DNA of 64,000 bases from a bacterium (GTDB lineage Bacteria; Zhuqueibacterota; Zhuqueibacteria; Residuimicrobiales; Krinioviventaceae), in NCBI GenBank assembly GCA_963693055.1, contig OY843751.1, positions 4,352,001 through 4,416,000 on the forward strand, given 5' to 3'. The notes below the pieces were generated by a model. The model had not been told where the DNA came from, made no database searches, and worked only from the letters and a program-made list of their open reading frames with translations. Shown here piece by piece: positions 13,744 to 33,079 of the stretch. The position numbers were made by a program, and so were the translations under genes. How positions within the stretch are numbered: the stretch's first letter is position 1; every line of letters begins with the position of its first letter.

Positions 13744-14604
13744 CTATTCCTGATTACAATGATCTATAACGCGTTTTGCATTCACATAGCATAAATTCTG
13801 ATCTTGAATGCCTTCAAAACAATACAATTCTCGAAATGTTTGAATGCGGCCATTATGCTTTTCAATCACATCCACCAAAGCGCCATGCGGACAATGCAGG
13901 CATGTATCACTTTGATTCTCAAAACGGGTAGCCGTTTGCCGTGCTACCAATGCACGGCTGTTGTTCCAGGTTTGCTTACCGGATCTGTACTCAAAATCTA
14001 CATGCCAGATCTTGTCGAACAATATTCTACCCTTGTCCAGAGTAAACTTGCCTTTGGCTTCAAACTGGTCACCGGCAGCAAATCTTAACCGGTCTTGCTG
14101 GCCCGGAGAAATATGAACATAAAAAAAGTCATCAATTCCGGTTTGGCCAATAAATCCATTTTGAATGATCAGCAGATAGCCATCAAGTCGAATCTGGCCA
14201 CCTTTACCATAAACCTGTTTCTTGAATCTGGGTTTAATTGTCACAATTTCACACCAGATATCCATTTCACGATTCTGGTATTCGTTCACCCAGTCATTAA
14301 ACTCTTCAACCTCTTGCAAAAACAACTCAAACTCTTGTTTCTCTACTTTGATGCGAGGTTGATAGTTTATTTTTTCATCCTCATAGTGCGCGCAGCCTTC
14401 ACACAATCTTCCAACATAATTATAACCGCGTACACAAGATTTTCCACGGTCCTTGAGTCTGCACGACCATTTAAAAATAATACAGCCCTGGGGATAACAT
14501 TTTTTCTGCTGCATAACATGATACGCTGAGACCCGATGTTCAAAACGCTCATGTCCTTTGTAATTACATATAAATATATCAGTTCGTTTTAATGGATTTC
14601 TCAT
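13744..14604 (-). CDS. Cys-rich hypothetical protein with a central beta-rich (OB-fold-like) segment
   Basis: Cys/His clusters at both termini (CNY..H, CYP.GC, CEGC.H, CLHC, LYC). Confidence 0.7.
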   Translation of the reverse strand: MRNPLKRTDIFICNYKGHERFEHRVSAYHVMQQKKCYPQGCIIFKWSCRLKDRGKSCVRGYNYVGRLCEGCAHYEDEKINYQPRIKVEKQEFELFLQEVEEFNDWVNEYQNREMDIWCEIVTIKPRFKKQVYGKGGQIRLDGYLLIIQNGFIGQTGIDDFFYVHISPGQQDRLRFAAGDQFEAKGKFTLDKGRILFDKIWHVDFEYRSGKQTWNNSRALVARQTATRFENQSDTCLHCPHGALVDVIEKHNGRIQTFRELYCFEGIQDQNLCYVNAKRVIDHCNQE

Positions 14605-17115: not shown

Positions 17116-18051
17116 TTATTTTTCATTAGCCCTGGGATGGGCCTGCTTATAGATACGTTTCAAATGTTCGGCTGAAACATGTGTGTAAATCTCTGTAGTC
17201 CCTAAATTTGCATGGCCCAACAATTCTTTAACAGACATTAAATCTGCTCCTGAATCTAACAAGTGGGTTGCAAATGTATGCCGCAATGAATGCGGATGCG
17301 CTTTTTCTGTATCTGCTACTTTTTTAATATAATTTTGAACAATTGTTGCGACTTGCTGTCTGGTAAATGGCTCCTTTTCCTCTTTAACAAATAAATAGCG
17401 GTTATATTCCGGCTTTACAGACGCTTGCACTTCAATTTGCTGTAAATACCGGCGTATATCCTCAATTACTATACCGGGCAGGGGTAAAACTCTTTTTTTA
17501 TTACCTTTACCTAATACGGTGAGTGTGCCGTTATTCAAGTTCACATCACTTGTTTTGATATTGATCAACTCACTTACGCGGATGCCTGTAGCATAAAACA
17601 ACTCTAGTATCAAATAATCCCGCAATCCCTCAAAAGTTTCAACATCCGGTAAACTCAACAATGCCTTTATTTCCGATTTTGTCATAAATGATGGCAGCTT
17701 TTTATCCAGCTTGGGAGAAGCAATGTTAGCAACAGGATTTGCCTCAAGCACTCCCTTTCTAACCAAATACCGGGAAAACATCCGTAACGCGGAAAGTTTT
17801 CTGCTGGTACTACGTGCCGTATATTTTTCTTTCAATAATTCAGACAAAAAACCCCGTACCACAGACTTGGTCAAGTGATCTGTTGCAAAAAGTTCGTCCG
17901 TTTGATAACGCTTCTTTAAAAAACTGACATAATGATTCAAATCACGTCTATATGCTGCAATTGTATTTGCAGAACTGCGTCTTTCAACTTCAAGGTGTTG
18001 TAAAAATTGCGGGATCCAGTTTTCTAATTTTTCTTTTTCCATCGTCATCAC
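17116..18051 (-). CDS. xerC: tyrosine recombinase XerC
   Basis: S.NT..AY.RD, YATGIRVSEL, GKG.K.R, HPHSLRHTFATHLL, LLGH....TTEIYTH; follows topA. Confidence 0.9.
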   Translation of the reverse strand: MMTMEKEKLENWIPQFLQHLEVERRSSANTIAAYRRDLNHYVSFLKKRYQTDELFATDHLTKSVVRGFLSELLKEKYTARSTSRKLSALRMFSRYLVRKGVLEANPVANIASPKLDKKLPSFMTKSEIKALLSLPDVETFEGLRDYLILELFYATGIRVSELINIKTSDVNLNNGTLTVLGKGNKKRVLPLPGIVIEDIRRYLQQIEVQASVKPEYNRYLFVKEEKEPFTRQQVATIVQNYIKKVADTEKAHPHSLRHTFATHLLDSGADLMSVKELLGHANLGTTEIYTHVSAEHLKRIYKQAHPRANEK

Positions 18052-20231
18052 TTTTCGCTGATCACCGAAATAAACTGGTCATCGTATAGATGATTACATT
18101 TAGGGCATTGATAGCCTTTGTGGTCCTCTGTCAAATCGTGTTCGACAAGATACCGGTTGCCGCAATTACGGCACAACATATTTACCGGTTTTTTCCACGC
18201 GGCAAAAGAACAATCAGGATACCTGCTGCATCCGTAAAACAATCGTCCTTTTGATTGCCTTTCTACTACTTTGCCGTCACATCCGTCAACAGGGCAAGAG
18301 ATGTTGAGTGTGTAGGCTTTGGTAAAATCACATTTAGGATACCGGGTGCAAGCCAGAAACCTTCCATATTGTCCCTCTCTGACTGTTAGCGGTGCTCCAC
18401 AGATCTCACATATTTCTTTTTCTTCTTTATTATCAGCCTTATATATATAAACGCAGCTTGCAGGGTAATGTTCACAAATTATTTTATTATCGTCACCGTG
18501 TAGCAATTTGCCTCCGCACAACGGACAAGCACTTTTCCCATCTGCGCCAATTGTTACAGGGGCTTGAACAGAACCACCATGTTCAAAAAGTTTACTGTAA
18601 CTGTTTATAAACACCTCTATTGTTTGTTTACCAGACGCCACAGTTCGGATCGAATTATCCAGCTGCAAAACTATACCGGTATTGATATAGCCTGAATACT
18701 TTAATAACAAGGCATTTATGGCATAAAATCCCTTCGCTGAAGGATAAAGTCCGGATCTCTTTCGTTCAAGCATTTGAATTGCAAAAAGCATGCCCGAATG
18801 ATATAAATATTCATAAATAGAACCTGTCCCGGATGCCAGCCACAAGTGCAGCATTTCAGGCTCTGAATATCTATTTGATATTTCGGATTGATGGGTTTGA
18901 ATGTCAAAATCTACAACCTCAAGCTCCTTACCCGTGTTCCAGGTATCTGGTATTTTTACAACCTCACGAACATTAGATTTTTCAGGAAGAACCTGTCGAA
19001 AGCCCCGAAACAGGTCTGTTTCATACTCGTACTCGCAAATACAAGGGTCTTCTTTATCATCACTGACAGAGATTGTAGTAATCTCTGAAACGGATTTTGA
19101 CATTTGTGAAGCAATATAACGATGCCAAATCATAGAATAGATGTCATATTGCTGCTCGGTAAGGTGCTTTTTCAGTTTGCGTGGAGTCATCCGCAAATCA
19201 AGGGGACGTATAGCTTCCCCTTCCGGATGATGACGGTTTTGCTTATATGCGCTTTGCGGTAGGTAATCTGTTCCATAATTGTTATAAATATATTCCCGAA
19301 GCTCTGCAATACTTTCGGGCTTTACAAAATCGGAAACTGAAAGATAATACGTTATCAAGCTAATGGGCTCATCGCCCCCCATTCTCACACCTTTGTACAA
19401 TTTATCAAGAATCTTGACGCTATGGGCTACAGAGTGCTTGAAAAACTCCTGGGCATCTGCCAACAAGGTCTGCGTTGTATAGGGCTTTGGGGGTGGTGTT
19501 TGGTTTTGCCGGGTTTGAATATTTCGGATCTTAAACTCACCATTCTTGACTTGTGATACCATGGCTTTTGCAAGCTGTACATTTCGCACATCCTGCTCTT
19601 CTTTACCAATTTTAACAATCTGAAAATCTAGATTCTTTTTCCCTCTGACCTTGAAACGTACTGAAATTTGATAATGGCGGTGTACCTTTTCGCTTTCAAC
19701 CTCGGTCTCTTTTTCATATAAAAAGCGTAAAAGCAGGGCCTGCTTAATGTGGGTAAGCTCTTTTATCCCCTTAACGGCTTTTATTTTTAAAAACTCGTTG
19801 TGCAATAAACGGTTTGCCCAATAATCCGCGCATTCCGCATAAAACAAATCCGGAGTTACTGCTTTGATCTTTTTCAATTCATTGTTCAAAAACAGGGCCG
19901 TATTCTGATACATTTTGACTCTGACGATCTTTTTATAAGTACCGTCAAACAATAACGCAAGTAATCCCGCTAAAAAATCACTATCATTCCCAGGATCCAC
20001 AACCAGAACAATTGTATGAAAAGCTTGAGCAAAATCAAAAAGGGGGTTGAATATATCTAATGCCGATTCAAGCAACCGGACGGATGAATTCGAAAAATCA
20101 ACATTCTGTTGAATAAATTCATTACGATTTATTTTTTTCAAAAACTTGTAATCTTGAAAAACCGTAAATCCATTTATTGTCAACAGATCATAGCGATTTT
20201 TAGAATCAACTACAACAAGCGTTTTTTGCAT
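18048..20231 (-). CDS. degenerate DNA topoisomerase IA (TopA-like) with C-terminal zinc ribbons, probably catalytically impaired
   Basis: Collinear with TopA (PP.PYTT.TL, LY.G, LITY, EAIRP, IW.R..ASQM, GRFL.C.RYP.C) but most catalytic motifs are substituted. Confidence 0.85.
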   Translation of the reverse strand: MQKTLVVVDSKNRYDLLTINGFTVFQDYKFLKKINRNEFIQQNVDFSNSSVRLLESALDIFNPLFDFAQAFHTIVLVVDPGNDSDFLAGLLALLFDGTYKKIVRVKMYQNTALFLNNELKKIKAVTPDLFYAECADYWANRLLHNEFLKIKAVKGIKELTHIKQALLLRFLYEKETEVESEKVHRHYQISVRFKVRGKKNLDFQIVKIGKEEQDVRNVQLAKAMVSQVKNGEFKIRNIQTRQNQTPPPKPYTTQTLLADAQEFFKHSVAHSVKILDKLYKGVRMGGDEPISLITYYLSVSDFVKPESIAELREYIYNNYGTDYLPQSAYKQNRHHPEGEAIRPLDLRMTPRKLKKHLTEQQYDIYSMIWHRYIASQMSKSVSEITTISVSDDKEDPCICEYEYETDLFRGFRQVLPEKSNVREVVKIPDTWNTGKELEVVDFDIQTHQSEISNRYSEPEMLHLWLASGTGSIYEYLYHSGMLFAIQMLERKRSGLYPSAKGFYAINALLLKYSGYINTGIVLQLDNSIRTVASGKQTIEVFINSYSKLFEHGGSVQAPVTIGADGKSACPLCGGKLLHGDDNKIICEHYPASCVYIYKADNKEEKEICEICGAPLTVREGQYGRFLACTRYPKCDFTKAYTLNISCPVDGCDGKVVERQSKGRLFYGCSRYPDCSFAAWKKPVNMLCRNCGNRYLVEHDLTEDHKGYQCPKCNHLYDDQFISVISEK

Positions 20232-20910: not shown

Positions 20911-23900
20911 TTAATTGCCTTTGCCACAGCAATTTTTATATTTTTTTCCACTTCCACAGGGACAAGGCTCGTTTCTACCAACTTTATTGGTATTAATCAC
21001 CTGACGTTGCTTTCCTGCCGGACGTCCCGGTGTGGGCTGGGCCTGTGCTTTACCTTTTGGTGGAGCCATTACCTGTTTAAACAGTTCTACCTGAGAATGA
21101 GAAGTAGATACCTTTTGCGGTTCAGAACGTCTCATTTCCCGCTCTTCAAGCTCACCGCCAACATCCAGTACGCGGAAAAGAGTGCTTACAATATCTCTGT
21201 TTGTACTGTCAATCATTTTCACAAACATTTTATAAGCTTCACTCTTGTACTCGATCAATGGATCTTTTTGTCCGTAACCACGCAAACCAATACCTTCACG
21301 CAGCTCATCAACACCACTCAAATGCTGACGCCAGTTTTCATCGATTTTTTCAAGGATATAATACCGCTCGTATCTGGCTACCATAGATTCGCCAATCTCA
21401 TCCACACGGCGGCGGTAAATGCTTTGCGCCCAACTACTCAGCGTATTCATCACCGTATTGGGATCCATTGCCTCACCGCTTTCATCATGCAGGCGTGGTG
21501 ATTGTCTGAATACCAGACGGCATTCCGATTCCAAACGACGAATCTGGGTTGCATCAAGATCGTCATTATTACCCAGCACACCGCTAATCATTTGATAGAT
21601 TGTATCATCAATCATGGTTAATACAGAATCAAAAACAATATCTGTACTAAGCCGCTCCTGATGGTAACGCTCAACCCGGTCTGCATAGGTCTTGTAGAAA
21701 CTTAAACCCCATGCAACCAGTTCTTCACGATAAGAGTTTAATGCTTCACGCTCACGAGATGCCGGTAGAATCTTGTCCGGTTTACCCATAAACATATTCT
21801 GAAAACTTGATGCCAGCAATTGTTGTGTTGATTCGGCATCTTTATTTTCTTTGATTACATTTTCAAACCGTGCTATAATTGAAGATTCTATCAATTCTTC
21901 AATGGATGTATTGGCAAGCAACAATTGGTTATATACGGTAATATTTTCTCGCAAGTGTTCCAAATAGGTATTTCTTGCCCACCGCATTGTCTGGCTAACA
22001 AGGTCAGGCCAGTCTTTTAATGCCTCAGCAGGTTTAAATGCTTCTCCAAATACACTCTGCAAAAACTCTGCCTGTTTTTCTTCCAGTTCCAAAACATCAC
22101 GGCTATGATATGCCGATGCCTGTATAAAACTATGTTCAACCACTGCATTAATATATTGTACAGATGAAAAATAACCCAGAATTCGGTTCCGGTACAACAT
22201 TTCATCTTTACCAGCAATTGCCAGGCCGTCAAGCCATTCCTGAACTTTTTTTATAACTTTTTCACGTCGAATGGTGCGCATTTCATTTTCACCAATGGGA
22301 GGACGCTGCATAAATATCTTTTCCAGATCACTCAAAAAGTTTTCCGAATTCCAGGTTGCCGCTGGCGCGTCAATTGGTAAATGACGGTTAACCAAACCAT
22401 TTACATAAATTTCCAGAAAAGTGTTCAACGGAATGGTTTTAAAAAGAATACTATCTATTGCTTTTTGCCCGTTTTCTACCTGAGAATTATAAACAGATGC
22501 AGCCCATTCTTTTAACCTTGATTCAAAAACATCAGCAGTATCAATATTGCTATTCTCAAGCCAATCTGGTTTCTGCTCAAAAATACGCTCCATCTCATAA
22601 CCAATGCCCGAGATATTCCATTTTGAAATATCTCGGGTACCAGCGTTATGCAGTCTTATTTTCAACAATACCAGCTCATCTATAATATCTTGAATATTAC
22701 AATACCCGGTAATACGGTGACGCTCCTGCATTTGATAGAGGTGGCGCTGTTCTTTCAACTTTTCATCAACCCAGGTTCTCAAAGTCTCCCGAACACCACT
22801 AACATCCTGGCTTTCAAGTTCAGATTTGGTAAAATCAGGTTCTGCACCAAAATACCGTTTCAGATTTTCAAACAATTCATCCAGTTTCCAGGTTGAACGA
22901 TCATCTTCTTCATCAATAAAGCGTTTGATCTTGGCTTCTACAAAATCTTCCGGCTGTGCAAAACCCAGCAGGTTTTGTCGTCGTTTATATATAATCTTTC
23001 TTTGTTCATTCAATACGTCATCATAATCCAGCAAATGCTTACGAATTTCAAAGTTGCGTTCTTCAACTTTTTTCTGAGCGCGTTCAATGGATTTTGTGAT
23101 CATAGAGTGCTCAATGCGCTCTCCCTCATCCATACTGCCTAAACGACTCATAATATTTGTAATGCGGTCAGAACCAAACAGACGCATGAGATCATCTTCC
23201 AATGACAGATAAAAACGTGAAGAACCCGGATCTCCCTGACGTCCCGCACGACCACGTAACTGCCGGTCAATTCGGCGGGCTTCATGCTTTTCAGAACCAA
23301 TGATCTGTAAACCACCTTTTTCAATTACATCTCTGGTAAGCTTGATATCCGTACCACGACCCGCCATATTGGTCGCAATGGTTATGGATCCCGGTAGACC
23401 TGCTTTGGCAACAATTTCAGCTTCGTTTTTATGATATTTGGCATTCAATACCGTATGAAAGCGTCCCGATTCCAGCTCTTTGGTAACATCACCCTTTTTC
23501 AGCCAGTTGGCAACAGGAATACCGCGCTGGGTAAACAAATTACTCAGATGCTGAGAAACATCAACGGAAACCGTACCAATCAGAACCGGTAGTCCTTTTT
23601 CATGATACTCTATGGTATCTTTAATGATTGCATCATACTTTTCAGCCTTTGTTCGATAGATCACATCATTCATATCATCACGAATAACCGGCCTATTGGT
23701 TGGCGCAACAATAACATCCAGGTTGTAGGTACTGTAAAATTCCTGCGCTTCTGTTTCGGCAGTACCAGTCATACCTGCCAGTTTATTATATAATCTAAAG
23801 AAATTCTGCAATGTAATGGTAGCCAGTGTCTGGCTTTCTGCCTGCACTTCTACACCTTCTTTAGCTTCCAACGCTTCATGCAAACCGTCACTAAAACGGC

Positions 23901-26900
23901 GTCCCGGCATTAAACGACCGGTAAACTGATCAACAATCATAACCGCTTTATTACCACGTTTTGCACCGGTACGTCTTAATTCATTGTCTTCCACTGCCTT
24001 GACCACATACTCGACATCATTATGATACAATGTATATGCCCGCAGCAACTGGGATATATTTTGCACGCGTTCTTCCACGTGGTTATAATCCTGCCAGATC
24101 TTGTCTCGCTGTTGTTCCAGCATTACCCGTGGACGACGTTCAAAATGGATACGGAACCAGTGTTCAATCTCTTCATTACGCATTACAAAATTCGGCATAT
24201 GTGCGTTAGACAGCAATTCAGTCATCTCGCGATCATCCAAAACAATATGACGTGAACGTAAATGCGTTTTTTCTTTTGGAAGCAAGCCTTGCAGCTCTGC
24301 CCGACTGCCGGCTTTTTTGGTACTTAGCTGCATAATCTCATCACGAAAACTCTGATACTCGTCCCGGTAATTGAAATAAGGTAATCCGCCAATCAACAAA
24401 GTACGGGCAGCTTTTTCAATGCCTTTGGGTATTTTATTTTCATCCAAAACAAACAATGCATCAACATCCACATTCGGATCGCTTGCAGCTTCTTTTAATT
24501 TATCTACAACCTGACTGCGCTCAAAAAACAGACCCTGCAAATTCTTGCGGCCGTTTTCAGTCAATCCTGTAATATTGACAGTCTTAAAAACGGGGTCCTC
24601 CGGATGCAAGGTACCACTAAACTGGAAATACCTGCGAAGCCAGCGCTGGCGCTCTGTAAGGGTTTGATCAGTATCTGCCAGGTTTGTAAAAATCATCTGT
24701 ATCGTTTCATTGAGGCGCTCAACCTCTTCAAACCGACGTGAAGCACTGATAATCTCTGCAGGCAAGTTGAATTTATCCTGCAGATGTGCATCCAGCTTTA
24801 GCTTGTTAGACAGTTCATTTTTACCGGTATCACGGCTCCAGGATTTAATTTCTTTATCTACATCGGCAAAATTCGCGCCCATCAAGCGTTCCAATTCAGC
24901 GTCTGCCAATCCGGCCACATGTCCATTCGCTTCAGTTTTAAAAATAGCCTCGGGCTTGTCTTTATAATCACCCAGATGTTTTTCAAAGTGACGTATTACG
25001 GTTTTACTTTCACTACTGAAATTTGAAAGGCATTCAACACCCAGGGAGGTTATATCAAACCTGCCGGTTTCCATAACATAAAAATCATTATTTTTAGGAT
25101 CTTCAAGGGTTTGAATATGTTCATAAAGTGCTGTTACATCTCTATCCATATCTTCTACAGCAAGAACATGAGCAGAATAATCATAATCTGCCTGGTTCAA
25201 AGTATCATCCAACTGCTTTTGGATCTGCTGGTCACGTTCTTCAACCAGGGTTCTGTCAGGCAGTACATACAGATCAGGATTACCACCAAGCAGAGCAATA
25301 CGGCCTTTTTCAGTAATTTGATTTAAAACAGCGCCATTGTCTTTTAACTCGAAATATTCCTGCTTGATATTTTCAATAGAGGTTAAATCTTGCGTTGAGG
25401 CAGGATTAAGAAGCGCAATCAATCCATTAACAGTAGGCAGCAGCATAGGATCGCCAGATTTTTGCATAGCCAATACCGCCAGTTTACCTTCTTGGGTCAA
25501 ACCGGTAATTGCGCCAAACTGTTTTTCAGTTTCAAAAAAGACGTCGGTTAATTCTCTTCTTCTGTCAACAAGCGGACGCTTCATAACCGGTTCAGCATCT
25601 ACGTCTGCTTCTTCTCGCACCATATCTAAAAGCTTTACAAAAGCATCTACAATAGCTTCATCATATTTACCGTTTGCATTGGATTTCAGAAAATCAATTC
25701 CCGTAGATGACATGCTGTTTACAGCCCTGTCCATCTTTTTGGTCATACCATAAAACTGCCGCCATACAGAGGCCTTGTCACCTTTATTATTTTGCAAACG
25801 AGTATTAATTTCTTCAGGTAAATTATTCAATTGAAGAGAAAGCTGCTCAATGGGTTCAAATTCAGACTCGGTAACCCCGGATTGTATACCAATAAGCGCG
25901 GCTTTACCCGCAAGAGTCAATCCGTTACAGGTACCGGTAATGGAATCATGTGTAAAATAGATGGAACGGTTCTTTTGCTCGCTGATTTTCTCAAGCGTTG
26001 CGCTCAATACATCCAGTTTTTGAATTTTATGAACAATATCCTGGTCGCGGCCGCCCGAGAGGAAAATACGTCCCTTTTCGGTAATATCTATAACATGGCT
26101 CTTTTCATCAATGGTGAAATACAAATCCGCATCAACTTCACCCATTTGCTTGTTTACTTCATATTGGCCCTGAATTCGTTCAATCAATTTCTTGACCCAA
26201 AATTCCGAAGTCAGCAGTTCCAACAGTTCTTTGTTTTTAGGATCTCCACGATGGACCTGAAGAATTTTGATTCCTGCTTGTTCTTCATCGTTCTCGAGCA
26301 ACTCTTTGCCTTCACGCAACAGTTGTTGCACCAGCTCGTTCTGTCGTTTAGCCAGGTTCTCTACAGTGGGTTTTAATTCTTTATAAATATTCTTGGGTGC
26401 TCCAACAGCTCCCGATATAATCAATGGTGTTCTGGCTTCATCAATCAAAACACTGTCCACTTCATCTACAATTGCGTAATGTAAGGGTCGCTGCACAACA
26501 GACCAAACATCCTGAGACATATTATCACGCAAATAATCAAATCCAAATTCGTTATTGGTACCATACGTAATATCCGCATGATAAGCCGCGCGGCGTTCTT
26601 CTGGAGATTGATCTCCAAAAATTGCAGCTACCGTTAATCCCAAAAACTTGTAAATTTCGCCCATCCATTCACAGTCACGTTGGGCCAGATAATCATTAAC
26701 AGTGATAAGATGCACACCCTTGCCTTCTAACGCATTCAGATACAAAGGCATAGAGGCTACAAGGGTTTTACCTTCACCTGTTGCCATTTCAGCAATTTTC
26801 CCATCATGCAGTATCATACCACCCAATATCTGCACATCATAAGGAATCATGTCCCATTCTATTTCCTGCCCGCGAACCATCCATTTTTTACCGCGCAACC

Positions 26901-27141
26901 GTCTACAGGTATCTTTAACAACGGCAAAAGCTTCGGGTAAAATATCATCAAGGGTTTCCCCCATACGTAATCTATATTTAAACTCGTTGGTTTTCGCTTT
27001 TAATTCATCATCAGATAGATGCTCATATTCTTTTGCATAGTCATTCACCGTAGCAACTAATGGCTCTAACCGTTTAACTTCACGTTCGGTGCTTGTGCCT
27101 CCCATAACTTTGGAAAGCATTTTTTCAATAGACTTTAACAT
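20911..27141 (-). CDS. secA: preprotein translocase ATPase SecA, greatly enlarged (2076 aa) by repeated PPXD and HWD modules
   Basis: [64 protein letters not shown]-terminal [13 protein letters not shown]. Confidence 0.97.
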
Positions 27142-27308
27142 TTACAAAATCCTCGTTTATCAAATCTATAAATAATTATACCGGCAATACTTATATGTAT
27201 ACAAACAACACAAGTTTCAAATTTAATGGATTTTAGGCTAAAAATCCAGCAAATTAATTACGCCGGTATTATTTAAATTGGCTGTTATCAAATTAGAGCA
27301 TGGTGGGG

Positions 27309-27815
27309 TTAAGCGGGTAAATCCTGTTTGTCCAGGCATCCTCTACCGGTTTTTTGAATTTTATTGTTCTTTTTCAAACTTTCATAAACAGCATCCAAAA
27401 TCCCGTTAATAAAACCACCGCTCTTGTCCGTACTATACAACTTGGACAGTTCAATCGCTTCATCAATGGAAACTTTGGGGGGGATATCATTAAAATTCAT
27501 AAACTCACAGATCGCAATACGCATAATAATGCGATCAATAATAGCAATACGCTCGAACTTCCAATTGGTAGAATGGTCTCTAATGTTTTGGTCCAAAACT
27601 TCCCTTTGATCAAAAGTTTGACGAATCAATTGTTTTGTAAACTGGGTAATTGTATTATCTACAACATCTTTGCCCAAAACCAGGGTCAAAACCTGTAAAA
27701 CAGAATTACCAGAGAGTTCCAGTGCATATAAACCCTGTAAAGCTGTCTCTCTGGCTTTTCTACGACTTGCGGGGGGTGAAATTAATTCAATTTCATCATT
27801 ATTTTCAATAAACAT
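27309..27815 (-). CDS. nusB: transcription antitermination factor NusB
   Basis: RRKARE.ALQ.LY, NW..ER...IDR, VSIDEAIEL.K, FINGILD; start uncertain. Confidence 0.95.
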   Translation of the reverse strand: MFIENNDEIELISPPASRRKARETALQGLYALELSGNSVLQVLTLVLGKDVVDNTITQFTKQLIRQTFDQREVLDQNIRDHSTNWKFERIAIIDRIIMRIAICEFMNFNDIPPKVSIDEAIELSKLYSTDKSGGFINGILDAVYESLKKNNKIQKTGRGCLDKQDLPA

Positions 27816-27832
27816 GGTATAAAAGAACACCT

Positions 27833-28762
27833 TTATAAAGTTATAAAATCATGCCAATTGTAAATATCATCACACTCGCCGTTGATATATTCAAAATAGC
27901 GTTTCTGTATCTTTTCAGTAATTTCTCCCCTGCTTCCACTGCCAACGGTAATTCTATCAACAGAACGGACCGGGGTAATTTCTGCGGCAGTACCGGAGAA
28001 GAATATTTCATCAGCAAGGTACAGCATTTCACGAGGTATTTTGGTTTCCACTACAGGAATATCCAATTCTTTTGCAATGGTAAATACACAATCGCGGGTA
28101 ATACCCAACAAAATGCTAGAGTGTATTGCCGGAGTATAAATCACGCCATCACGGATCACATAAACGTTTTCTCCGCTGCCCTCACTTACATAACCCTGAA
28201 CATCAAGCCCAATACCTTCAGAAAAACCGGCCTGGGTTGCTTCGGTTTTAATCAGTTGAGAGTTCATATAATTAGAACCAGCCTTGGCCATAGAAGGCAT
28301 TGTGTTGGGTGCCAGTCGGTTCCAGCTCGAAACAGCAACATCCACACCATTAACAATAGCGTCTTCTCCCAGATAACGTCCCCAATTCAGGCCGCCTATT
28401 ATCACTTCTACCGGGCACTTGGAAGCATCCACACCCAGACTGTGATATCCACGGTAAACAAGCGGACGTACATAAGCAGATTCAAATTTATTTACTTTGA
28501 TAGTTTCTTTACATGCCTCTACAATTTCTTCTTGTGAAAAGGGAATAGGCATACGATATATTTTTGCAGAATCAAACAATCGTCTGATATGTTCTTTTAA
28601 TCTAAAAATACTGGGACCGTTTGGTGTCTTGTAACAACGCATGCCTTCAAAAACACTGGTTCCATAATGCAGAACATGAGACATAACATGGACATTTGCA
28701 TCTTTCCACGCAACAAACTCACCATTCATCCATATTTTGCCCTGTTCATCTCTGGGATCCAT
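27833..28762 (-). CDS. ilvE: branched-chain amino acid aminotransferase
   Basis: HVLHYGTSVFEG.R, AKAGSNY, EGSGEN, LGITR, GTAAE. Confidence 0.96.
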   Translation of the reverse strand: MDPRDEQGKIWMNGEFVAWKDANVHVMSHVLHYGTSVFEGMRCYKTPNGPSIFRLKEHIRRLFDSAKIYRMPIPFSQEEIVEACKETIKVNKFESAYVRPLVYRGYHSLGVDASKCPVEVIIGGLNWGRYLGEDAIVNGVDVAVSSWNRLAPNTMPSMAKAGSNYMNSQLIKTEATQAGFSEGIGLDVQGYVSEGSGENVYVIRDGVIYTPAIHSSILLGITRDCVFTIAKELDIPVVETKIPREMLYLADEIFFSGTAAEITPVRSVDRITVGSGSRGEITEKIQKRYFEYINGECDDIYNWHDFITL

Positions 28763-30508: not shown

Positions 30509-30527
30509 TCATATACAAATCATATAA

Positions 30528-30884
30528 TACAAAGCAGGTCATAAGCCGAATTCTGTTATCCGCAAATGCGGATCGATGATCATTTATCTGGGATGGCGAT
30601 TGCCCGCCACCTCAAGCGACCTACCCGAGAGTCAAACGAGACGGGCCGCCTCTTCTCTCCTATTTGGTCTTGCTCCGAATGGGGTTTACCCTGCCCCCGA
30701 TGTCACCAACGGGGCGGTGAGCTCTTACCTCGCCATTTCACCTTTGCCCCAAAGGGCTGTATATTTTCTGTGGCACTTTCCCTGCTTCACAACAGGTCCG
30801 CGTTACGGACCATTCTGCCCTGTGGAGTTCGGACTTTCCTCATCCCGCAAAATTGCGGAACGCGATCACCTGCCCTGCTTTGTA
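30528..30884 (-). ncRNA. rnpB: RNase P RNA (type A)
   Basis: Minus strand reads GAGGAAAGUCCGAACUCC ... AGUGCCACAGAAA ... GAGCAAGACCAAAUAGG ... ACAGAAUUCGGCUUAU; P1 ends tacaaagcagg and cctgctttgta pair. Confidence 0.97.
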
Positions 30885-31942: not shown

Positions 31943-33079
31943 TTACCATAATTGATATTGACCGTCTTTGATTATAACTTCTTTCTTGTTCTGTGAGTAC
32001 TCATAGTCAACATGTGTAACACGTACACGCGGTTGTGTTTCCGGTAGATATATTCGGTCAATATGCACAACAGCTTCAGGTGAACTGAATTGTTCAGGAC
32101 CTATTATTCCTCCAAAATGATCACTGCGACCAAAGGCAATATGGAATCCCAATTTTTCATCCAGCAAAACCTGCCCTATAGGATGAATATCAAAATCCGC
32201 AATAATCCCGAATCCAAGTTCTGCAACGTTTGCATATGCCGGTTCTGATCTTACATAATCCCATTCCTGCATACTTTTAGGACCATCTGACAAAACTTTG
32301 GTTATCTTGTTCTGTCGTATACGGTAAATTACAACTTCATCACCAAATTGTACCGGCAAATACCCCTGACTTTGACTCACCTTACCCAAGCCACCTTCAT
32401 AAGGTACAATATATGTCTCGCCACTGGGTAAATTACCAGCTGTTCCCCTTTCAGGAAACCGTCCACTACTCACGTGCGCTGTTCTTTGAAATAAATCAAA
32501 AGATACCTTGTACTTTTCTTTATCATCAACAACAAATTCAGCATTTACCTTGTCAGCAAAATCAAGTTTTTGTTTCAATAATTGCAGACGCTCATTTACT
32601 ACATTAAAATCAATGCGTAATGCGGGAATCATATCCGCGGTAAAACCCGGCATAGTAGCAGCACGGAAATTGTACTTTTTAGCGGCAACTTTTAACGGTG
32701 CAGTTGCAGAATATTGTGTTAATGCAATAAACAATTGTGTATCTGCAAAATAACCAGTTAAATTTTTTGATTCTTTTGGCAAGTCAGAAGCTTTATCAGG
32801 AAGCTTGCCGTTTAATTGATACACTTTTTCTGGCAAATCAGCATTGTTTGATCCAACATCCGGATACGCTACCAGATCAACAGCTTCTACCCCAAGCTTG
32901 TCCAAATTCTCAGACAGTAAGGCATACCAGTCAAAAGCTATTTTCCTTCTATCATTCCATGCCGGATTGTCCTGCCCAGACTTGGGAATATCTACCAATA
33001 TTGCTAATTTCTTATCCCCCTCTAACCTCGGAAAACAAAAGTTCAATAATTGAACCAGTTCCAAACCTGACAACTTCAT
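31943..33079 (-). CDS. M29-like (thermophilic metalloprotease family) aminopeptidase
   Basis: NLPSGETY, AELGFG, LDEK.GFHIAFG, HID. Confidence 0.75.
   Translation of the reverse strand: MKLSGLELVQLLNFCFPRLEGDKKLAILVDIPKSGQDNPAWNDRRKIAFDWYALLSENLDKLGVEAVDLVAYPDVGSNNADLPEKVYQLNGKLPDKASDLPKESKNLTGYFADTQLFIALTQYSATAPLKVAAKKYNFRAATMPGFTADMIPALRIDFNVVNERLQLLKQKLDFADKVNAEFVVDDKEKYKVSFDLFQRTAHVSSGRFPERGTAGNLPSGETYIVPYEGGLGKVSQSQGYLPVQFGDEVVIYRIRQNKITKVLSDGPKSMQEWDYVRSEPAYANVAELGFGIIADFDIHPIGQVLLDEKLGFHIAFGRSDHFGGIIGPEQFSSPEAVVHIDRIYLPETQPRVRVTHVDYEYSQNKKEVIIKDGQYQLW

Follow-up and report, generated by a model that had tools for sequence, protein, structure and literature searches.

SecA is essential, and its layout is usually treated as near-invariant. 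In structures of SecA engaged with SecY, the substrate is gripped by two stem strands and the PP loop, and the C loop (R322) couples to the NBDs (PMC9926265; PMC6599042). The groove between PPXD and HWD is the signal-sequence site, the PPXD swings off the HWD upon SecY engagement, and the HWD contacts both SecY and lipid (PMC5963308; PMC7503281; PMC6599042). Published insertions and rearrangements include a 45-aa (amino acid) insert in Bacteroidetes (PMC1887533), inserts of 50 and 76 aa in thermophiles (PMC7023208) and SecA_SW rearrangements in Planctomycetes, described at the Pfam level (PMC4452313). Here we describe a SecA of 2076 aa encoded in a window of 64,000 nucleotides, i.e., the whole stretch of DNA that was analysed (contig OY843751.1), from a bacterium of the KSB1 group (phylum Zhuqueibacterota, order Residuimicrobiales, hereafter the order). 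It is a real, order-wide variant of a known machine, enlarged in the PPXD and the HWD.

An order-wide giant SecA with an intact motor

The host genome (6.54 Mb, one contig, 100% complete) contains one SecA_DEAD protein, namely the product of the secA open reading frame (ORF) described here, and one secY gene. GC content of the secA ORF resembles that of the neighbouring genes. Pfam recovered every SecA domain, split by two gaps, and the protein scored above the curated equivalog cut-offs of TIGR00963 (909 versus 800) and PRK12904 (973 versus 814). The best-scoring model was PRK12901 for long FCB-type SecA, with a match split by the inserts and a score below that model's cut-off (1095.7 versus 1493). 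Assignment as an accessory SecA2 was rejected, as all four SecA2 models stayed below cut-off, the copy is the only one and the SEC-C tail is present. Among named full-length relatives, the nearest bear the label candidate division KSB1 (L060, 68% identical, and P0017), two others carry the label 'Cytophagia', and some database records of the giant form are not named SecA at all but 'SEC-C domain-containing' or 'hypothetical'. The gene order recJ-ilvE-nusB-secA-smg-(topA)-xerC is found in the order and, with some losses, in sister orders, and this shared synteny marks the giant secA as an inherited housekeeping gene. Judged by gene content and gene order, the giant protein is the housekeeping SecA of the cell, and it probably drives preproteins through an ordinary SecYEG. 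An initial annotation, made from the DNA letters alone, had already taken it for the probable primary SecA.

Among 43 genomes of the order (five families, host included), 34 contain an open frame of 2060-2166 aa. In eight, secA is broken by contig ends or frameshifts; two secA halves still lie about 2.3-3 kb apart in four of these (G010, G015, G032 and G036), and a 1808-aa piece in G041 aligns across aa 259-2074. One genome, 78% complete, shows only a second-type SecA of ~800 aa. Second SecA-like genes of about 790-930 aa (L051-L056) were seen off the housekeeping locus in G004, G010, G013, G016, G047 and G050; of these, the giant-bearing G004, G010 and G013 carry a second gene of 808-934 aa. 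The survey of SecA length across the phylum that the initial annotation had proposed covered 133 genomes at least 85% complete, 130 of them with a SecA match. Outside the order, 95 of 97 genomes had a match, none longer than 1156 aa, some matches being fragments, and no intermediate-length form occurred among the 130 matched genomes. A quick tree of the SecA core, made after dropping three Bacillota rows, unites the 17 giant rows in one clade (SH-aLRT, a likelihood-ratio branch support, 100) with a long stem, next to the sister orders and Calditrichota. The giant form is also usable as an order-level marker.

The gene and its parts, all on the minus strand, are as follows.

20911..27141, minus strand: secA, the genome's only SecA, 2076 aa (ORF list, Pfam, SecA models)
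26407..27141, minus strand: NBD1 (aa 1-245) with Walker A at 119-126 and DEVD at 226, invariant in 34/34
26050..26406, minus strand: N-terminal part of the PPXD (aa 246-364) with the long-type helical extension and the native hairpin-helix P0 (aa ~340-364) (alignment, hhalign, AlphaFold)
25318..26049, minus strand: PPXD insert A (aa 365-608) with P1 (394), P2 (462), P3 (534) and the P4 hairpin (595) (hhalign, AlphaFold)
25192..25317, minus strand: P4 helix, LPD loop and next helix (aa 609-650), core-like conservation of 82% (conservation, hhalign)
24118..25191, minus strand: PPXD insert B (aa 651-1008) with P5 (686), P6 (732), P7 (837), P8 (895) and a helical return segment (hhalign, AlphaFold)
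23827..24117, minus strand: C-terminal part of the PPXD (aa 1009-1105) with the single C loop R1076 and PP loop R1081 and an order-specific loop insert of ~15 aa (alignments; PMC9926265)
22957..23826, minus strand: NBD2 and long HSD helix (aa 1106-1395); this stretch contains a 19-aa insert specific to the order (aa ~1210-1228) and also a short variable region (alignments)
21397..22956, minus strand: HWD array (aa 1396-1915) of six three-helix units, H0-H5 (1413, 1503, 1592, 1681, 1767, 1861), with a two-unit period of ~178 aa (hhalign, AlphaFold)
21157..21396, minus strand: two-helix finger (aa 1916-1995), loop Y1956 (alignment, 34-sequence conservation)
20911..21156, minus strand: C-terminal tail with the SEC-C metal-binding motif (aa 2056-2074) (PF02810)

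The initial annotation described motor, finger and SEC-C tail as intact, and conservation across the order bears this out. Each of 17 motor residues checked in NBD1 and NBD2 is kept in all 34 giant sequences. R1076, R1081 and Y1956, which by alignment correspond to R322, R327 and Y743 of Bacillus subtilis, are single-copy and invariant in 34/34. The four SEC-C cysteines are present in 33 of the 34, the exception being truncated by a contig end. The giant form has two small inserts of its own, both strongly conserved within the order, at aa 1049-1066 (about 23944-23997, second PPXD hairpin) and aa 1210-1228 (about 23458-23514, NBD2). The NBD1 insert of the sister orders is absent from the giant form.

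Relative to the window protein, identity averages 73-84% in the core segments and 37-43% in the arrays; for the P4 link it is 82%. Conservation is lowest in the middle units of the arrays (27-35%) and highest where the arrays meet the core. Insert lengths are nearly constant (A, 232-252 aa; B, 358-382 aa; HWD, 498-506 aa; spread at most 24 aa). For 11 pairs above 80% identity, the ratio of nonsynonymous to synonymous substitution rates is 0.02-0.07 in the core, 0.05-0.22 in the PPXD insert and 0.06-0.26 in the HWD array, and the inserts are therefore maintained as folded protein, under looser constraint than the motor.

Module arrays in the PPXD and the HWD

From motif to motif, the PPXD spans 840 aa as compared to 209-210 aa in three relatives of ~1000-1050 aa (two from sister orders, one from Calditrichota) and 105-124 aa in short-type SecA, while the HWD spans 585 aa versus 146 aa in normal-length relatives. 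Both the roughly doubled length and the two blocks of extra sequence reported in the initial annotation (here about aa 365-1008 and 1396-1915) are thus confirmed. Units were cut from alignments of 34 giant and 17 normal-length sequences, with windows chosen by eye, and compared by hhalign. In the PPXD, 30 of 72 ordered pairs reached a probability of at least 50% and connect all nine units, against a maximum of 16% in the reversed controls (90 comparisons) and at most 2% in PPXD-versus-HWD cross controls. The native PPXD module of the 17 normal-length relatives directly matches P0, P4, P5 and P2 at 99, 96, 87 and 58%, respectively. In the HWD, 18 of 30 pairs at or above the same threshold connect all six units (reversed controls, maximum 11% in 42 comparisons), and the native HWD module of normal-length relatives directly matches H0, H1, H2 and H5 at 95-97%. 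Units P1, P3, P6-P8, H3 and H4 reach only 3-18% to native modules and are joined solely via other units. The two-unit period of the HWD array is apparent from H0-H1 versus H2-H3 (99% over 164 columns) and H0-H1 versus H4-H5 (91%); H2-H3 versus H4-H5 yields only 24%.

AlphaFold modelling, which the initial annotation had suggested, predicts the same units. In the PPXD, nine beta-hairpin-plus-helix units (mean predicted local distance difference test score, pLDDT, 81) have hairpins at aa 342, 396, 464, 536, 597, 688, 734, 839 and 897, with helices after each; the HWD consists of six three-helix wing units, in blocks mostly of pLDDT 80-95. NBD1 was omitted from the second, C-terminal model, resulting in low confidence at aa 1020-1150 and in parts of NBD2 and HSD. 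Both models have predicted template modelling scores of 0.61-0.62, so that the overall shape of the arms is only tentatively predicted.

Growth of the PPXD is nested: insert A lies between the native hairpin-helix and the LPD loop, and insert B at the tip of the helical hairpin beyond. Since insert A was placed before the LPD loop, it is now P4 that bears this loop (95% to the native segment). The helix after the P4 LPD loop resembles the core PPXD helix at aa 1023-1042 (78%; reversed, 0.3%). What has been copied in the PPXD is the upstream hairpin-helix; the clamp loops, i.e., C loop and PP loop, are not copied. The original claim that both blocks are built from SecA's own modules holds for the nine PPXD and six HWD units but not throughout, because no module match was detected in several linkers or in the ~100 aa that follow the last hairpin (aa ~915-1008), all of them helical.

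A single-sequence BLASTP of the protein against itself gave no self-match, and DNA repeats are two-copy and at most 28 nt long; the duplications are therefore old. At E ≤ 0.01, Pfam placed no family on the PPXD insert and only SecA_SW and two sub-cut-off matches on the HWD array. Foldseek with the PPXD array found nothing in the PDB at E ≤ 0.001, only SecA matches of ~80 columns. All 40 homologues found for the PPXD insert are SecA proteins. A profile search of 1.84 billion representatives with this insert returned seven matches: two were already among the 40, two of 502-625 aa aligned from aa ~364, and three were pieces of 91-142 aa. A search of the ESM Atlas with the insert, not made by structure, gave no usable match, and the VIA wide structural search with the C-terminal model, which barely probed the HWD array, returned only SecA and helicase NBD2 matches. 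An intein or a fusion with a foreign domain, already denied in the initial annotation, was rejected since Pfam shows no Hint/endonuclease or other known domain in the PPXD insert and the inserts match SecA's own modules. Misassembly, against which the annotation had cautioned, was likewise rejected, as the gene is syntenic across the order and a contig from a second study spans 21305-27994 without an indel inside the gene (496 differences over this span; exactly matching runs may be the source sample).

What the enlarged domains may do

The added parts probably constitute fixed arms with a structural role, not an additional catalytic part. We tentatively favor the explanation that old tandem copies of modules make up two large predicted arms that have been locked in as structural parts, with motor, clamp and finger unchanged. 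The copies would have a single origin on the stem of the order by nested tandem duplication at two surface sites tolerant of bulk; once diverged and packed against each other, they could no longer be cleanly lost and would have become entrenched. Any effect on export would be indirect, with bulk or shape near the PPXD-HWD groove altering the PPXD swing or the oligomer state of SecA, and no repeat would contribute new binding chemistry. We prefer this explanation because the working residues are single and invariant in 34/34, lengths are near-fixed, selection is purifying, the partner genes are ordinary and intermediates are lacking. By analogy with the known structures, both arrays appear to border client- and membrane-facing surfaces and to replace none of them. 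Other phyla enlarge the same domains with dissimilar sequences, so that the sites seem to matter more than the sequence. Four points weigh against mere entrenchment and would agree with a positive function as well: the cost of doubling an abundant essential protein, which has nevertheless been kept in five families; the core-like P4 segment inside the insert; the 38 invariant columns of the PPXD insert; and the repeated independent growth at both groove-bordering domains, which can also be read as convergent adaptation.

One such function would be that of a built-in holdase or extended client track, in which the repeated surfaces of PPXD and HWD would bind long, unfolded preproteins ahead of the clamp, a possible though somewhat unlikely explanation. 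Both enlarged domains flank the signal-sequence groove, and HWD residues are reported to bind clients (PMC5963308; PMC7503281). Furthermore, the host genome yielded no SecB match and contains 36 ORFs of at least 1500 aa, many with signal-peptide-like starts and tails resembling those of the Por/type IX secretion system (T9SS), as judged by eye. However, SecB was not found in any of the 29 sister genomes with normal SecA either (0/29; weak matches in 5/32 genomes of the order, two above cut-off), and its absence therefore does not track the giant form. Cargo with Por/T9SS tails occurs in 61/61 genomes of both groups, and in sister genomes with normal SecA the cargo frames reach 1390-1798 aa. 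Scored matches to the tail were counted up to a ceiling of 78. Tail-bearing candidates are somewhat denser in the order (median 39 per Mb, range 26-61, n=32) than outside (30 per Mb, 17-39, n=29), but these figures are unscored first-look candidates from kin that are not independent, with overlapping ranges, and may lend the holdase idea a slight lean at most. Holdases are often acidic, and the arrays are mildly so (net charge -3 to -6 per 100 aa); yet the hydrophobic fraction of the inserts (0.39-0.43) equals that of the core and is no higher. The substrate-gripping loops are single and uncopied, and trigger factor and the signal recognition particle (SRP) are present. The initial annotation had inferred that the arrays could act as a holdase or an extended clamp when very large proteins are exported, and no test came out in support of it.

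SecY, SecD/F, YidC, SRP/FtsY and trigger factor are present at ordinary length in three genomes of the order and two sister genomes, and the cytoplasmic loops of SecY align without inserts in 5/5. The idea that the giant form makes up for a loss, in this order only, of SecB, SRP, trigger factor, YidC or SecDF was rejected, since SecB was not found in the sisters either and the others are present; co-evolved SecY loops were rejected because the loops are unchanged. SecD frames measure about 690-715 aa in order and sisters alike (G000:C1:32326 region; G040, G026, G043, G047) and are thus not order-specific; E. coli SecD has ~600 aa.

We consider it rather unlikely that the arms serve as docking sites for a partner specific to the lineage, which might be a cytoplasmic protein, the ribosome, the membrane or another SecA. 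P4, aa 905-1008, the H0-H1 linker and H5 contain invariant residues and conserved patches that would suit such a role, as would the conserved order-specific small inserts in NBD2 and the PPXD's C-terminal part; known structures show the HWD in contact with lipid and SecY, and cross-contacts between PPXD and HWD have been modelled in dimers (PMC6599042; PMC7503281). On the other hand, the secA neighbourhood gained no new gene (by locus comparison only; no genome-wide partner search was made), the SecY loops do not differ in any of the five genomes, and the net negative charge of the arrays would speak against direct binding of rRNA or anionic lipid. An artefact or processed product, i.e., misassembly, intein-like splicing or insertion of a foreign domain, is very hard to believe, as the full-length frame recurs in 34/43 genomes, the second-study contig is free of indels in the gene, Pfam and the Foldseek search of the PDB gave no foreign match, the insert homologues are all SecA and nothing was found in its favor, the 2076-aa product being known here from the gene alone, with no RNA run listed among the sequencing runs that contain it.

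Further genes of the window and giant SecAs from other phyla

Two genes downstream of secA, topA (18048-20231, minus strand) has an altered active-site motif in all six copies inspected in the order (window plus five loci), whereas the motif of the syntenic topA is intact in 11 of 12 sister-order copies inspected, the twelfth showing one conservative change. The window copy scores 182 versus a cut-off of 456 (TIGR01051). In some genomes of the order the syntenic topA is shortened to 477-572 aa, and it is missing from 10 loci. The host has a second topA at G000:C1:4503291-4505933 (minus strand); an intact topA of 883-992 aa is located elsewhere in 4/4 genomes of the order tested, and sister G043 has the syntenic one only. 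This looks like an order-wide topA replacement in which the old gene would have been left as a fast-evolving pseudo-enzyme, with no evident link to the giant SecA. The window also encodes class A RNase P RNA at 30527-30881 (minus strand; RF00010, 299 bits), the short ORFs over it being spurious. A Cys-rich ORF of 286 aa (13744-14604, minus strand) and one of 378 aa (31943-33079, minus strand) have no Pfam match at E ≤ 0.1.

A search for SecA longer than 1559 aa in other phyla gave 436 matches among 7992 scored candidates, of which 120 were listed and analysed. They fall into nine clusters and eight singletons, among which are a fusion to an unrelated enzyme family and a record from a plant, and none of the 120 is KSB1-type. 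Lengths range from 1560 to 2550 aa overall (Anaerolineae, 2026-2037; Planctomycetota, 1612; Fimbriimonadaceae, 2512; Armatimonadetes, 2245-2253; Chitinivibrionales, 1580). Where spans could be measured, it is mostly the HWD (about 400-1330 aa) or the PPXD (556-874 aa) that has grown, with NBD1 or the variable region also enlarged in some cases. Internal repeats versus reversed controls numbered 506/4, 15/3, 37/0, 41/1, 16/0 and 147/0 in the six sets tested and 37/2 in the KSB1 control. A second copy of the HWD module was found in two of the six sets (76-78%), weakly in a third and not in Anaerolineae. Against the 120 listed giants, the KSB1 PPXD insert profile reached a best E of 0.014, and hidden Markov models of the KSB1 or sister modules match few sites in the long SecAs of other phyla. 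In P0083 (Chitinivibrionales), P0138 and P0149 the PPXD insert begins directly after the LPD loop, i.e., at the site of KSB1 insert B. The cores of these giants lie on separate branches in a FastTree phylogeny with only 13 normal-length rows, so that its four changes are a floor and not a count of origins. Anaerolineae-type SecAs (P0090, P0092, P0110 and relatives; about 2030-2070 aa) lack a SEC-C tail and have a ~1320-aa HWD region with many helical repeats of ~62 aa, for which no match to the HWD module was obtained. Armatimonadota have two giant types, one (P0094/P0147) with a ~830-aa PPXD and a ~540-aa variable region, the other (P0097/P0107; 2455-2551 aa) with a repeat-rich region after the HSD.

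From these cases one may construct a general proposal, namely that a chaperone arm built by SecA itself would have evolved repeatedly: the PPXD tip and the HWD would have been amplified, in at least six bacterial lineages, into large helical arrays holding preproteins beside the clamp, the KSB1 order being the extreme with both arms made from its own modules. We regard this as unlikely; if true, it would reveal that the wing domain, so far poorly understood, really serves to hold clients. Regardless, the independent growth at the same two domains provides a comparative test set, and the giants are natural constructs for two questions, the role of the HWD and the holding of clients by SecA outside the clamp. 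All post-translational export of the order depends on a motor enlarged by about 1,070 residues, so that PPXD swing and SecY docking tolerate very large loads.

In agreement with the initial annotation, the full texts searched, among which few subscription-journal papers were within reach, describe neither PPXD/HWD module arrays nor a KSB1 SecA. The accessible parts of the papers on published SecA indels likewise report lineage-fixed enlargements of the housekeeping SecA, in the Planctomycetes case in the wing/scaffold region, but these amount to tens of residues or to a rearrangement not resolved into module copies, and those parts contain no PPXD array and no KSB1 protein. Accessory SecA2 shares the SecA-family ATPase; the giant protein differs from it by its SEC-C tail and by the lack of a second secA or secY in the genome. 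The giants of other phyla resemble the KSB1 protein in combining an intact core with large helical growth of HWD or PPXD, usually in only one of the two domains. Long FCB-type SecA (PRK12901; ~1000-1160 aa, other KSB1 orders and Calditrichota), the nearest branch in the core tree, has the same helical PPXD extension, LPD loop and gene neighbourhood; it lacks the module copies and possesses inserts in NBD1 and the variable region that the giant form does not have. With canonical SecA (B. subtilis 1tf2/1m6n, E. coli 2fsf/2vda, T. maritima 3din; TIGR00963, PRK12904), finally, the giant form shares domain order, motor motifs, C and PP loop arginines, finger and SEC-C, but in place of one PPXD hairpin-helix and one HWD it carries nine and six, at about 2.4 times the length.

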